DNA of 64,000 nt from Escherichia coli (GCF_030013205.1 NZ_CP122648.1), one strand, 5' to 3'. Positions 22,152 to 37,371 are shown, counted from the first letter of the stretch. Translations and numbers: made by a program. The notes: generated by a model from the letters alone, not told the origin.

Positions 22152-22950
22152 GACTCCTTGCTCATCGCATGAAGACTCCGAGAGTGAACCCCGTTAGAAA
22201 GGGTCACACGCATGCCCCAATACAAAATTATTTGCTCGCCTCTATCGTTGCCATTTCATCAAAAGAGGAAAAGACAATGATAAAAAAGTTACAAATATGT
22301 TAATGAATAAACCAAATTGATCCCGTAATTATATTACGCCGCAAAATCCTTACAATAAACAGGTTTTTATTGAGCAAATTTGCATTTTTCGACAGTGATC
22401 AATTTATAGCGAAATTGTCACGATCTCACCAATTTGATCTACGACAATTTATCGTGTTTTGCAGATTTTTTTCAAGAATTAAAAATTGATTTATATCAAA
22501 ACCAACCAAATATGTTAATTATGTATAAACCATAGATCATTGGTGATTTTATTGTTAATTTATTGTGAAATATTTATGCAACACAATTATTACAATGAAA
22601 AGGTATAGATAAAAAACCAGTGTTTTATTTAACAGAACCGCCTTATCCACTTTTTATAATACCAATTGATTAGATTAGCCAATTTGTTGCTATTTTACAT
22701 AACATATTTTTATCAAAGTTAATTGATTGTTGCGTTTATGAGCACCGGCCGTAAGCCCGTTATGTTATTGTTTCATTAGTAATAATCACTTAAATGTATC
22801 GATGAAACAGGTATGACTTAGCGGGAGTGATTGTTTCTGAGTGAACAGAGACCACTTTCGCCTGATAAATGAAAAATGAGCGATTTTTGCAAGTTAGTTT
22901 TTCTATAGCCGAGTACGCTCAGCGCCTCGCTTGATTACAATGAGGTTGCT
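22152..22950 (-). promoter_or_regulatory. Long AT-rich cydAB regulatory region
   Basis: About 800 bp AT-rich non-coding DNA upstream of cydA (a 60-bp sample at 22501-22560 has 14/60 G+C); contains FNR-like palindromes. Confidence 0.7.
22486..22499. promoter_or_regulatory. FNR-type binding site (perfect TTGAT-N4-ATCAA)
   Basis: ttgatttatatcaa matches the FNR consensus exactly; a second imperfect site ttgatctacgacaa at 22434-22447 lies 52 bp away. Confidence 0.5.
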
Positions 22951-22953
22951 GCT

Positions 22954-23898
22954 ATGAGTCCTGATAATATCAGTTCTGCTGTCAATCGCTTCTCAGGTTG
23001 GCCATCTAATGATCCTCTAAAAACAGATAAAGAATCAATGACATCACCCATGACTGTGCAGGTAATAAAGATGATTGCCGCCATCCTTGACCCACATCGG
23101 ATAGTCGTTGGAATCGATACACTTTATACAACGCAGCGCGAAACATTTACCTCAGAGAGTCAACAGCTCATTGAATCAGCATTGCAAACACTTCATGTGA
23201 TGAATTTAAATAACCTGGAAACAAATCTCGATGAGGAAGGTCACTATCTGGCTTTTGGATATAACGTTGACACTCCTGACAGAATAACCGTTTCTGCTTA
23301 TAATGAAAAAAAGCCTGGCTGCTATGGCCAATGTCTTTTAATACAGGATGACGAAACAGACTTATTTAACCTGATAAAAGTTAAAATTTTTGAAGCCAGA
23401 CATAATTATGTCGCTCAATTGATGAGCGATCCGGAATTTATGTTCAAATTTAGTTATAGCGCTCAACAAAATAGATTAGAACCTCATCTTCTGGTTCCCA
23501 CTTATTTCCCTCTAAAAACAAACGAACCGGTTACGCAAGAGGATGTACTGTTACTTTATCGTTTCTTTAAAATGGATGGTGATTTTAATATATTAACATC
23601 AGATGAATACATGAGCATCATGACACCTCTGATGAAGTGTGAGCGCAGCATCCACGACCACAACAGGTATGTGACGGGCAAAGATACCCTTCTTCTGGAC
23701 TATCCTCCTTCTGGTAACCAGATATATTTCCATATTTTTCCTGACGAATCAGCAACACTAGTCCTTTATTTTTCAAACAATGACATTGAATGTTTCGTCT
23801 TTGAAAGAGATATTCCGAGCCAGTATCGCTTTTTCAAAATGTTTACCAATCTGGCACTGGTTATTGATCAGTTAACCGATGCCAATCAAATACTTTAA
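22954..23898 (+). CDS. Hypothetical protein (314 aa), low-GC orphan, no recognisable family
   Basis: Uninterrupted ORF with GAGG RBS 8 nt upstream of the ATG; AT-rich codon usage (spot counts 25/60 and 18/60 G+C) unlike neighbouring core genes. Confidence 0.6.
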   Translation: MSPDNISSAVNRFSGWPSNDPLKTDKESMTSPMTVQVIKMIAAILDPHRIVVGIDTLYTTQRETFTSESQQLIESALQTLHVMNLNNLETNLDEEGHYLAFGYNVDTPDRITVSAYNEKKPGCYGQCLLIQDDETDLFNLIKVKIFEARHNYVAQLMSDPEFMFKFSYSAQQNRLEPHLLVPTYFPLKTNEPVTQEDVLLLYRFFKMDGDFNILTSDEYMSIMTPLMKCERSIHDHNRYVTGKDTLLLDYPPSGNQIYFHIFPDESATLVLYFSNNDIECFVFERDIPSQYRFFKMFTNLALVIDQLTDANQIL

Positions 23899-23978
23899 TT
23901 TTTATATATTCCCTGTGGCAAATATTGCTAAACAATGCCCGGGGATTAATTTTTATTACTCACGGAAAGATTTAAATA

Positions 23979-24401
23979 ATGATCCCATCTCAAATCTCTT
24001 TCAACACCCTTCCTGTCAATGCAACATACGCTTCAGAGACAACAGTTGACACACAAAAATTCTCTGACATCCTCTACTCAGCGGGGTGTTCCCTAAAGGA
24101 TCTGGCTTATCTGAGCAGATGTCTGGCATCAATACATCCGACTATCGCCAAAAACATTTATGAAACAGAAAATCTCAGCGATCAAAAATTACTACATATT
24201 GATTGCCGTAGTACAAATGAAATCAAGATAAATATCTTTTTTGGTCAACAACGAGAAGGATTAATTGAAATTAGTTCTGACACAGTCATTTTTTCGATAC
24301 TGTCTTCATTGATTGACTCCACCATTTCTAAATTTCAACACCAAAACCCCGTTAACGGTTCTGTAAATCCTGACCTATTGTATGAGGATTATACTGATTA
24401 A
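23979..24401 (+). CDS. Hypothetical protein (140 aa), low-GC orphan, no recognisable family
   Basis: ORF 80 bp downstream of the 314-aa ORF on the same strand, similar composition; polar Ser/Thr/Ile/Asn/Pro-rich N-terminus. Confidence 0.5.
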   Translation: MIPSQISFNTLPVNATYASETTVDTQKFSDILYSAGCSLKDLAYLSRCLASIHPTIAKNIYETENLSDQKLLHIDCRSTNEIKINIFFGQQREGLIEISSDTVIFSILSSLIDSTISKFQHQNPVNGSVNPDLLYEDYTD

Positions 24402-24948
24402 ATCCCTCCTGTCGCGAAAAATGGCCTGCGTTATTGCCAGACGTAATAAAACTTTTGATTAACGTTTCTCGTACTGGTAGCACCTTCATGTACTTTTCTT
24501 TTTTACGAAAAATCAAAAGAGCTAACAAAGGTCATAATTCGCATGAATCATTAATTATTTGTTATTTTCAACATTATTTTTACATTAAGCAGAGATGAAT
24601 TGCTGTGAAATTCGACTTAACTTTTATGAAATGCATTTACTCATGGCTAAAGCCACGTCACAAAAATGCAAATTAGAAGTTGATCACAATTATCTCAATA
24701 CATCAAATCAAGTTAATTTTAAAAATTTAACATTCATGACATCAGTTGACATAACACACTGAATTAAAATGAGAATTTGAAAACACACTTTAAACAATCA
24801 TTTCCCGAAAGACATTTTGAAAATAGATCAATTGCAACATTACGGTCAGATAAAGACACTCCTGTGATATTAAACCTGTGCCGTTATGAACGGCCATAAA
24901 TACGACGTGTGTAACTTATTTTACTCTCTGTCTTACAAAGGATTACCC
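24402..24948 (+). promoter_or_regulatory. AT-rich leader / probable promoter region of the glutamate mutase operon
   Basis: 547 bp of AT-rich non-coding DNA directly upstream of the first operon gene; no ORF of 60 aa or more. Confidence 0.4.
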
Positions 24949-35768: not shown

Positions 35769-35801
35769 TAACTGCGCCTGGCATCCCGCCAGGCGCAGGT
35801 T

Positions 35802-36707
35802 TTACATCTCCTGCGGTACGACCGATTTCGCCAGCAACCATTCACGAAATTGCTGCAAGTGCGGCGAGTCAGACTTCTCTTCCTGCCACGTCATAATAAA
35901 ACGATTACCGGTACGAATAGGCACATCACAGGGAATCACCATATCGCCACTATCCAAATCATGTTGAATAGCGAACCGTGGTAACAGCGCCACGCCGAGA
36001 TTAGAGCGCACGGCGGCAATCAGCATTGAAAGCAAATCGAAACGTGGTCCGTTATTGACCAGCGGACTGCTAACGCCAGATAAAGCAAACCACTCTTCCC
36101 AGCCAGTAATACGGGTGCTTTGATGCAGAAGTGGTAACTCAGTAAGCAGTTCTGCCACTGACAGTTTTTGATCGGACATTGCAAGCAAACTGCCGCTGCA
36201 TACCGGCAAAATCTCCTCATCAAAGAGATATTCTACTTCCGCCCAGGGCGCGCAAAAATTTTCGCGCATAATGACAGCATCGTACTCCCGATTAAGAAAA
36301 TCGCCGTTATTAGCTAAAGAATGAATATTAACAATAATATCGGGATGTAACTTTGTGAATTCATGTAAATTTGGGATTAACCAGTGGGTACTAAAAGTAG
36401 GATTAACGGCAAGTTCAATAACCTGAACCGTAGGCTGCCAGGTCATAATGGTATTGGTATCGCGTTCCAGCTTATTTAATGTTTCTTTTACTATCCCCAG
36501 GTAATACTTCCCTGCATCATTAAGAAAAATACGTTTTTTAGAGTGTGAAAATAACGGAGTATGTAAAAATTCCTCCAGCGCACTCACTTGTCTGAATACA
36601 GCACTTTGGGTTAACGCTAACTCCTCTGCCGCTCTGGTATAACTTTCATGACGTGCGACGACCTCAAAAGTCACCAGCAGCTCCGTTTTAGGTATTTTTC
36701 CTCGCAT
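35802..36707 (-). CDS. LysR-family transcriptional regulator
   Basis: 301-aa ORF with N-terminal HTH (…SYTRAAEELALTQSAVFRQVSALEE…) and LysR substrate-binding domain. Confidence 0.85.
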   Translation of the reverse strand: MRGKIPKTELLVTFEVVARHESYTRAAEELALTQSAVFRQVSALEEFLHTPLFSHSKKRIFLNDAGKYYLGIVKETLNKLERDTNTIMTWQPTVQVIELAVNPTFSTHWLIPNLHEFTKLHPDIIVNIHSLANNGDFLNREYDAVIMRENFCAPWAEVEYLFDEEILPVCSGSLLAMSDQKLSVAELLTELPLLHQSTRITGWEEWFALSGVSSPLVNNGPRFDLLSMLIAAVRSNLGVALLPRFAIQHDLDSGDMVIPCDVPIRTGNRFIMTWQEEKSDSPHLQQFREWLLAKSVVPQEM

Positions 36708-37269
36708 AATGCCGTCCCTTAAAAATAGTTTAAACCATCAAAAATACATTACTTATTACGAAGTAATGGTAACCAAAGCAGCAATAAATAATTTATAAGA
36801 ATCATGATTGACATTTATAACCCAGTAAGCCTAGCGTGACAAATATCTTAATCAGATAATAATAATCCGAAAAGCACAGCGCCTTTCGAATTATCCGGAA
36901 TCACATTAAGTGAAAATTATTAAATTGATATCATTTATCATATCTGTGGATATTATGATAAACAATCAACAAAGATTTTATTTTTGATTTATAGCATATC
37001 CCTCTAAGAATTTTTGCGATGCTGCAATATCCGGGTAAAGACCCGATCCTGGCTGACAAATGGCACGACTTGACGATAAGCGGTGAACATCGCTTTTGTT
37101 GATTTACTTAACGCTACGGTCAAACGCTGGGAAGCCAGTGCATCAGGTAACGATTCGAAATTCGCCGTCGTTCTTATTCGTGGCTTGCGGTCGGTTGCGG
37201 CAATCCACAGTGGCTGTGGTCATGCAGTCAAGCCAGCGGTCAGATTTCGACCGTGGTTAACATTTAAGG

Positions 37270-37298
37270 CATAAAAAAGGCCATCATACGATGGCCAA
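37270..37298 (-). terminator. Intrinsic terminator of the sdh-suc transcript
   Basis: Stem ggccatc / gatggcc with loop atac; on the - strand followed by ttttttat. Confidence 0.7.
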
Positions 37299-37371
37299 CC
37301 ATGTCGAAACCGACAGCCCTTCGCCATTCCTGTAGAGGGAAGCGGCGAGGGCTATTTCTTATTACAGATAT
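37271..37371 (-). ncRNA. sdhX: sucD 3'UTR, candidate SdhX (RybD) sRNA
   Basis: 101-nt interval between the sucD stop and the terminator U-run; SdhX is known to be processed from this 3'UTR; the sRNA sequence itself was not recalled for comparison. Confidence 0.45.

Follow-up and report, generated by a model that had tools for sequence, protein, structure and literature searches.

A methylaspartate pathway cluster with an IS1-split citramalate lyase gene in the mosaic cydA–sucD interval of Escherichia coli

We analyzed a stretch of 64 000 nucleotides of Escherichia coli DNA (GCF_030013205.1, NZ_CP122648.1; hereafter the window) in which the interval between the core genes cydA and sucD holds an accessory segment. 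This segment most probably carries the known enterobacterial methylaspartate (mesaconate) pathway cluster, in a copy whose last step has just been lost, as one module of a variable hot spot between the two core genes; from the sequence comparisons below we put the probability of this reading at about 0.88. An insertion sequence, IS1, splits cmlB, which encodes the smaller of the two subunits of citramalate lyase, the enzyme of that last step. The system itself is already known; new here are a cmlB knock-out specific to this strain and a reconstructed mosaic of the locus.

Over 15 251 bases (22150–37400) the window matches the chromosome of E. coli ETEC4079 (pig faeces, Belgium) with 100% identity, and the RefSeq annotation of that chromosome holds the same genes. 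All of the open reading frames (ORFs) listed in the original prediction, a reading of the DNA alone, were found at their coordinates. Population counts refer to 5426 complete E. coli genomes, of which 1116, O157:H7 included, carry at least 80% of the segment.

The methylaspartate cluster and its enzymes

Enzyme identity was judged with NCBIfam equivalog models and their model-specific bit-score cut-offs. The pathway genes, the associated transporter and the regulator are as follows.

24949–25398, plus strand: glmS, glutamate (methylaspartate) mutase B12-binding subunit S (NF002612, 252.5 bits, cut-off 110; TIGR01501, 245.8 bits, cut-off 135.8; RefSeq start)
25398–26786, plus strand: glmL (mutL), glutamate mutase accessory/reactivating protein (NF040745, 509.7 bits, cut-off 475)
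26805–28250, plus strand: glmE, glutamate mutase catalytic subunit E (TIGR01503, 863 bits, cut-off 390)
28250–29491, plus strand: mal, 3-methylaspartate ammonia-lyase (TIGR01502, 542 bits, cut-off 286)
29495–30865, plus strand: cmlA (DUF1446/AtuA family), citramalate lyase large subunit by its match to PDB 9ERQ_A/9EVF, intact
32116–33396, plus strand: dicarboxylate/amino acid:cation symporter (DAACS) gene, product called GltP in PMC4682846 (RefSeq start)
33504–35156, plus strand: fumD, class I fumarase-type mesaconase, predicted to convert mesaconate to (S)-citramalate (NF011921, 1282 bits, cut-off 1060)
35166–35768, plus strand: cobO/cobA-type ATP:cob(I)alamin adenosyltransferase, predicted to supply adenosylcobalamin (TIGR00708, 246.6 bits, cut-off 167.75)
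35802–36707, minus strand: LysR-type regulator, GcvA-like (under the cut-off), intact, 301 amino acids

Each enzyme is identified by family membership together with high identity to characterised or crystallised orthologues. The original prediction had proposed a glutamate mutase and a methylaspartase, and had named other mutases or enolase-family enzymes as the alternative that would overturn the proposal; GlmS, GlmL, GlmE and Mal all score above their equivalog cut-offs, and that alternative fails. GlmE shares ∼62% identity with the crystallised Clostridium glutamate mutase (6H9E/1CCW). Mal is ∼92% identical to the crystallised methylaspartase of Citrobacter amalonaticus (1KKO), and its next-best family is reached only at E = 7.6e-4, which argues for a methylaspartase and not another enzyme of the enolase superfamily. 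The role of GlmL/MutL as a mutase accessory protein follows PMC4682846 (Fig 4 legend). The hydratase, correctly foreseen as a class I fumarase-type enzyme, matches the FumD-type model NF011921, whereas its score with the FumA model (927 bits) lies under the cut-off of 1105; it is identical to an O157:H7 FumD at 542 of 550 residues.

The two genes that follow mal in intact clusters had been described as a DUF1446/DUF4387-like pair. The families were right and the description incomplete, since the pair matches citramalate lyase CmlAB (PDB 9ERQ/9EVF). CmlA aligns over residues 1–456 of 456 with 9ERQ_A/9EVF, deposited as “Citramalate lyase, subunit A (cmlA)” (965 bits, ∼91% identity), and the intact CmlB of O157:H7 (DUF4387, 105 amino acids) is ∼84% identical to 9ERQ_B, “Citramalate lyase, subunit B (cmlB)”. 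By these matches the pair is CmlAB, as named by the PDB depositors, and intact clusters would therefore provide every step that leads from glutamate to pyruvate, acetate and ammonia. The RefSeq labels for the lyase genes still read “AtuA family protein” and “DUF4387”.

Kronen and Berg (2015; PMC4682846) found the cluster in 26.5% of E. coli strains and characterised FumD as a mesaconase, but could not say what becomes of (S)-citramalate or what DUF1446 does; the identity of CmlAB closes this gap. Read with the structures, the lyase genes would supply the final step of a B12-dependent conversion of glutamate to pyruvate and acetate in ∼21% of E. coli genomes, among them enterohaemorrhagic E. 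coli. A recent preprint (bioRxiv 10.64898/2026.01.16.699985) uses cmlAB genes from Raoultella planticola that the Berg laboratory had provided; together with a fumarase they gave growth on mesaconate in engineered E. coli, and the mechanism is a direct cleavage independent of coenzyme A (CoA).

In the proposed pathway, the DAACS-family symporter would import glutamate, and adenosylcobalamin-dependent GlmS/GlmE, kept active by GlmL, would convert L-glutamate into L-threo-3-methylaspartate. Mal would then release ammonia to give mesaconate, FumD would hydrate mesaconate to (S)-citramalate, and CmlAB would cleave (S)-citramalate into pyruvate and acetate, the step predicted to be disabled in ETEC4079. 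CobO would adenosylate salvaged corrinoid; E. coli is not known to make B12 de novo and hence would have to salvage it. Expression is presumably controlled by the LysR-type regulator. We infer the transporter substrate, the function of the regulator and the operon boundaries, whereas FumD activity (PMC4682846), Mal activity in relatives and CmlAB function in vivo (bioRxiv 10.64898/2026.01.16.699985) have been shown by others.

Several points weigh against this assignment. The function of CmlAB rests on PDB molecule names and on second-hand use of the enzyme. The symporter passes neither the DctA cut-off (314 vs 513 bits) nor that of GltP (304 vs 638 bits), and its substrate is not assignable from sequence. 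The O157:H7 strain assayed had no detectable methylaspartase activity and no glutamate-dependent anaerobic growth (PMC4682846), and given these negative assays the physiological role of the cluster in E. coli, and the conditions for it, are unproven.

The same points bear on an alternative that we regard as unlikely, in which the substrates are external C5-dicarboxylates or 3-methylaspartate (mesaconate, citramalate, methylaspartate), with FumD and CmlAB carrying the main flux, or in which the route runs in reverse. It would accommodate a symporter that scores with DctA, a C4-dicarboxylate family, as well as with GltP and passes neither, the lack of glutamate-dependent growth or activity in O157:H7 (PMC4682846), and the mesaconate growth that CmlAB and a fumarase give engineered E. 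coli. It makes it hard to explain, however, why an entire B12-dependent glutamate mutase is kept under strong purifying selection together with its reactivase and a dedicated adenosyltransferase, and the operon that adjoins the cluster in 144 genomes, the histidine utilization (hut) operon described below, yields glutamate by an established pathway. We therefore favor glutamate as the substrate of the methylaspartate cluster.

The IS1 insertion in cmlB and the state of the pathway

The original prediction had outlined a six-gene translationally coupled operon and, separately, an IS1. The tightly coupled operon glmS-glmL-glmE-mal-cmlA-cmlB is broken in its sixth gene, cmlB, which is split by that IS1.

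30862–31006, plus strand: cmlB (DUF4387) 5′ fragment, 48 native codons followed by read-through into IS1 and a stop; RefSeq pseudogene
30999–31006, plus strand: left copy of the 8-bp target-site duplication ACTGATTG, read from the sequence
31007–31774, plus strand: IS1, 768 bp, with 23-bp terminal inverted repeats and insA/insAB′ with programmed frameshift (coding sequence 31062–31759)
31775–31782, plus strand: right copy of the 8-bp target-site duplication ACTGATTG, read from the sequence
31775–31955, plus strand: cmlB 3′ fragment, duplicated 8 bp included (RefSeq and translation)

The element has the hallmarks of IS1, namely a length of 768 bp, inverted repeats of ∼23 bp, the insA/insB′ frameshift and a target duplication of 8–9 bp, and both of its ORFs, insA and insB′, match NF033558. 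When IS1 and one copy of ACTGATTG are taken out, the reconstructed CmlB is identical to that of O157:H7 at 105/105 residues, and the insertion is therefore recent. Its junction with cmlB occurs in a single complete genome, ETEC4079 (1/5426). Because the insertion at codon 48/49 truncates CmlB to 49 residues, the pathway should stop at (S)-citramalate; citramalate lyase is thus predicted to be lost in ETEC4079, and the expression of downstream genes may be disturbed as well. With CmlA intact and CmlB broken, the window holds a member of the cluster family that is a defective copy. ETEC4079 is in effect a natural cmlB knock-out, and its comparison with an IS1-free relative could test pathway function and citramalate accumulation in vivo. 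A separate lesion is seen in strain EC2641 (L007:3484–4933), where an independent IS1B-associated event has truncated the symporter gene and removed fumD and cobO together with a portion of the LysR gene.

Predicted transcription signals across the cluster comprise an AT-rich leader and two hairpins.

24402–24948, plus strand: AT-rich intergenic region upstream of glmS, presumed promoter or regulatory region of the operon (547 bp, guanine–cytosine (GC) content 0.32)
32037–32072, plus strand: perfect 16-bp hairpin between cmlB and the symporter gene (−24.3 kcal/mol, z = −4.75)
35772–35798, no strand assigned: strong GC-rich hairpin (terminator) between the convergent cobO and LysR genes (−28.1 kcal/mol, z = −6.25)

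The hairpin at 32037–32072 is possibly a terminator or an mRNA-stabilising element that ends the glmS–cmlB unit, and the two hairpins together suggest two plus-strand transcription units and a convergent LysR gene. Over 22000–37500, no cobalamin riboswitch or any other Rfam family matched at E ≤ 1, and a promoter scan was uninformative, its sites being no more numerous than in shuffled sequence.

This layout is relevant to a second and rather improbable alternative, that the pathway is complete despite IS1, with CmlA active by itself or another lyase standing in, and with the downstream genes read from their own or an IS1-borne promoter. The intact cmlA is in keeping with it, as are the hairpin and the 160-bp gap before the symporter gene, which suggest a separate downstream unit. 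On the other hand, the crystal contains the two chains, the functional work cloned both subunits, only the first 48 of the 105 CmlB residues precede the cut, and no citramalate lyase activity was obtained in E. coli under conditions for citrate lyase, isocitrate lyase or methylisocitrate lyase (PMC4682846). A pathway that is broken at its last step in ETEC4079 remains the better description.

We further compared the window with O157:H7 over eight pathway genes (3137 codons) and obtained a ratio of non-synonymous to synonymous substitution rates (dN/dS) of 0.083 and a synonymous divergence (dS) of 0.052. The latter is comparable to that of the flanking genes (0.041 for cydA and 0.094 for sucD), and together with the low dN/dS it argues for long residence in the backbone under sustained purifying selection, and against either a recent import or a decaying relic.

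These values make it improbable that E. coli carries the cluster as a cryptic, decaying relic that has lost its function, with the IS1 insertion as one step of that decay. Such a history would agree with the lack of both expression and activity in the single O157:H7 strain tested (PMC4682846) and with the occurrence of independent lesions, namely IS1 in cmlB, the IS1B-associated deletion in EC2641 and a frameshift in the LysR gene of one O157:H7 genome. Each of these lesions is a singleton, however (1/5426 for the IS1 junction, 1/1122 for the LysR frameshift), dN/dS over eight genes points to sustained purifying selection, and 1116 genomes retain the cluster.

The LysR gene is present in 1122 genomes. 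In O157:H7 strain 7.1_Anguil (L002:15878–16784) an extra T turns TGGTTTG into TGGTTTTG and truncates the protein at residue 212. We considered this frameshift as the cause of the silent O157:H7 cluster and rejected it, as the +1 T allele occurs in only one of the genomes that carry the gene and is either a strain-specific mutation or a sequencing error.

A mosaic interval between cydA and sucD

Relative to a K-12-type genome (L004), blastn homology stops at 22524 and is picked up again at 37269, so that the variable segment spans ∼14.7 kb. The interval had originally been drawn at 22950–37300; its gene content was as listed, and its limits prove slightly wider.

22525–37268, no strand assigned: variable segment relative to the K-12 type, a mosaic of modules (blastn against L004)
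22954–23898, plus strand: ORF314, AT-rich orphan gene found in Escherichia only (314 amino acids, no family match)
23979–24401, plus strand: ORF140, AT-rich orphan gene found in Escherichia/Shigella only (140 amino acids, no family match)
36981–37177, minus strand: hutH (histidine ammonia-lyase) relics, amino acids 511–556 with a frameshift and amino acids 375–397 (tblastn with L006 HutH; blastn)
37174–37269, plus strand: rtcB 3′-end relics, amino acids 375–398 and 451–464 of 466 (tblastn and blastn against L003)
37279–37296, minus strand: sucD terminator hairpin, core genome, common to the K-12 type

K-12-type genomes carry mngR-mngA-mngB in this interval and lack the cluster, as the original prediction had expected; the K-12-type cydA/mngB junction is found in 3173 genomes. 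The right-hand junction of the window and O157:H7 is shared by 832 genomes. Other arrangements are longer. The cluster is followed by an intact rtcB and mngB-mngA-mngR in 134 genomes (e.g. L003), and in 144 genomes a full hut operon adjoins the cluster and is itself followed by rtcB, an arrangement read in L006. In the latter (E. coli EcE.ESBL.COL, L006:8146–18042), the order is hutH-hutG-hutI-hutD-permease-hutU, directly beside the cluster and before rtcB. The end product of the Hut pathway is glutamate, which would feed the methylaspartate cluster.

These arrangements show the “replacement-type island” of the original prediction to be too simple, as the cluster and mngB-mngA-mngR stand side by side in 134 genomes, with no mutually exclusive occupancy, and the cluster has a hut neighbor in 144. 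Judged by this co-occurrence, the cluster and mngRAB are neighboring modules that vary independently of each other and not alternative alleles. The hutH and rtcB relics at the right end indicate that the form in the window is a deletion derivative of a longer cluster–hut–rtcB arrangement. In the K-12-type junction, sensitive blastn and tblastx found no relics of the cluster, which would have marked K-12 as a deletion derivative; K-12 may have lost the cluster or may never have had it. Relics and composite genomes together show the assembly and erosion of the locus.

The segment contains no tRNA and no integrase ORF (ORF list and RefSeq annotation), in agreement with the original prediction, and no direct repeats were found flanking it. 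The cluster is not a self-mobile island but one of the modules of a variable hot spot bounded by cydA and sucD. A classical integrative island, recently acquired and replacing mngR-mngA-mngB in one step, is very improbable: AT-rich ends and K-12-type genomes that lack the cluster and hold mngRAB in the same interval would suit it, but it is at odds with the missing integrase, tRNA or attachment site and flanking repeats, the coexistence of cluster and mngBAR in 134 genomes, the hutH/rtcB relics of a longer form and a synonymous divergence that matches the flanking core genes.

More speculatively, the interval may once have held a larger block for amino-acid catabolism, made up of hut (histidine to glutamate), the methylaspartate cluster (glutamate to pyruvate and acetate) and rtcB, from which most lineages, the window and O157:H7 included, would be stepwise deletion derivatives; the IS1 hit in cmlB of ETEC4079 would also create a dead end at (S)-citramalate, which is perhaps excreted, and the two Escherichia-only orphans, adjacent to the control region of cydAB, would be a further module. 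We offer this history tentatively.

Neither orphan matched an entry of Pfam, NCBIfam, PADLOC or PHROGs, and searches of 5.8e9 and 1.84e9 proteins returned no relatives outside Escherichia/Shigella. Both look like real genes from their substitution patterns: against a 65%-identical homologue, ORF314 has a dN/dS of 0.42 with its exact length kept and zero insertions or deletions, and ORF140 has a dN/dS of 0.21 against O157:H7. An AlphaFold2 model of ORF314 was unusable (predicted local distance difference test score 43). The 65%-identical homologue lies at the same locus in Logan assembly SRR11658232 (L008:9880–12562), beside a different neighbor of 258 amino acids and without the glutamate cluster, and ORF314 is therefore a separate module.

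Composition varies along the segment, with a GC content of 32–38% over 22000–25000 and 36500–37000, ∼50–57% across most of the operon and 42–50% over 31500–34500. The flanking genes, cydA (20580–22148, minus strand) and sucD (37372–38241, minus strand), both score above NCBIfam equivalog cut-offs, and the remaining window is K-12-like core, with mod-gal-aroG-nadA-tRNAs-tol-pal-cyd on one side and suc-sdh-gltA-ybg fimbriae on the other.

In E. coli T309.Ta3 (L005:4329–5444), a single gene for a tetratricopeptide-repeat protein fills the sucD–cydA interval, without mngRAB or the cluster. A stretch of 471 bp that is specific to K-12-type genomes (L004:3373–3843) lies between the cydA upstream region and mngB and is AT-rich, with a GC content of 0.38 over L004:3341–3880; by eye it contains an element like a repetitive extragenic palindrome, and it has no similarity to the cluster-bearing forms. 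The 76-kb plasmid pFXCREC043-3 (L011, NZ_CP195869.1) carries sucD and the cluster with nearly every gene frameshifted. We set this apparent plasmid copy aside as most likely an artefact of a low-accuracy assembly, given the presence of sucD and the many frameshifts.

Elsewhere in the window, the fimbrial usher gene ybgQ (∼49961–52420), downstream of gltA, is annotated as a pseudogene with an internal stop in the identical ETEC4079 record, and an ISAs1-family transposase gene (ybfD) remnant at ∼63180–63947 carries the annotation of a truncated gene that has an internal stop. Between nadA and cpoB (12357–13052) the tRNA cluster has five genes here, four tRNA-Lys and one tRNA-Val; the K-12 cluster has seven (lysT-valT-lysW-valZ-lysY-lysZ-lysQ), which would make this a copy-number difference.

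Comparison with known systems

K-12 mngR-mngA-mngB occupies the same sucD–cydA interval, but its function, a mannosylglycerate phosphotransferase system and hydrolase, is unrelated to that of the cluster, and the two are not allelic, as both co-occur in 134 genomes. The haloarchaeal methylaspartate cycle also differs, since mesaconate is activated there to mesaconyl-CoA for acetate assimilation, whereas genes for a CoA-transferase, a mesaconyl-CoA hydratase and a methylmalyl-CoA lyase are all missing here.

The clusters of Clostridium tetanomorphum and C. tetani share the same chemistry as far as citramalate and have homologous glutamate mutase, MutL/GlmL and methylaspartase. They differ in having a mesaconase encoded by two genes (MesAB) and a citramalate lyase of the CitDEF type with its activation genes, in place of which the enterobacterial cluster has the single-chain FumD and the unrelated CmlAB, with a transporter, an adenosyltransferase and a LysR regulator added. 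Compared with the CmlAB of PDB 9ERQ and 9EVF and the Raoultella planticola enzyme of the preprint, cmlA and cmlB of the window have the same order and overlap by 4 bp, but CmlA alone is intact.

The closest counterpart is the FumD cluster of O157:H7 and other Enterobacteriaceae (PMC4682846), and the O157:H7 methylaspartate cluster with FumD to which the original prediction referred is confirmed as this published system. The locus is the same, as is the order glmS-glmL-glmE-mal-DUF1446-DUF4387, symporter, fumD, cobA-type gene and LysR gene, with 98.1–98.7% DNA identity to O157:H7 and 98–100% identity of the pathway proteins. The window differs from it in the cmlB gene split by IS1, a lesion carried by no other complete genome.

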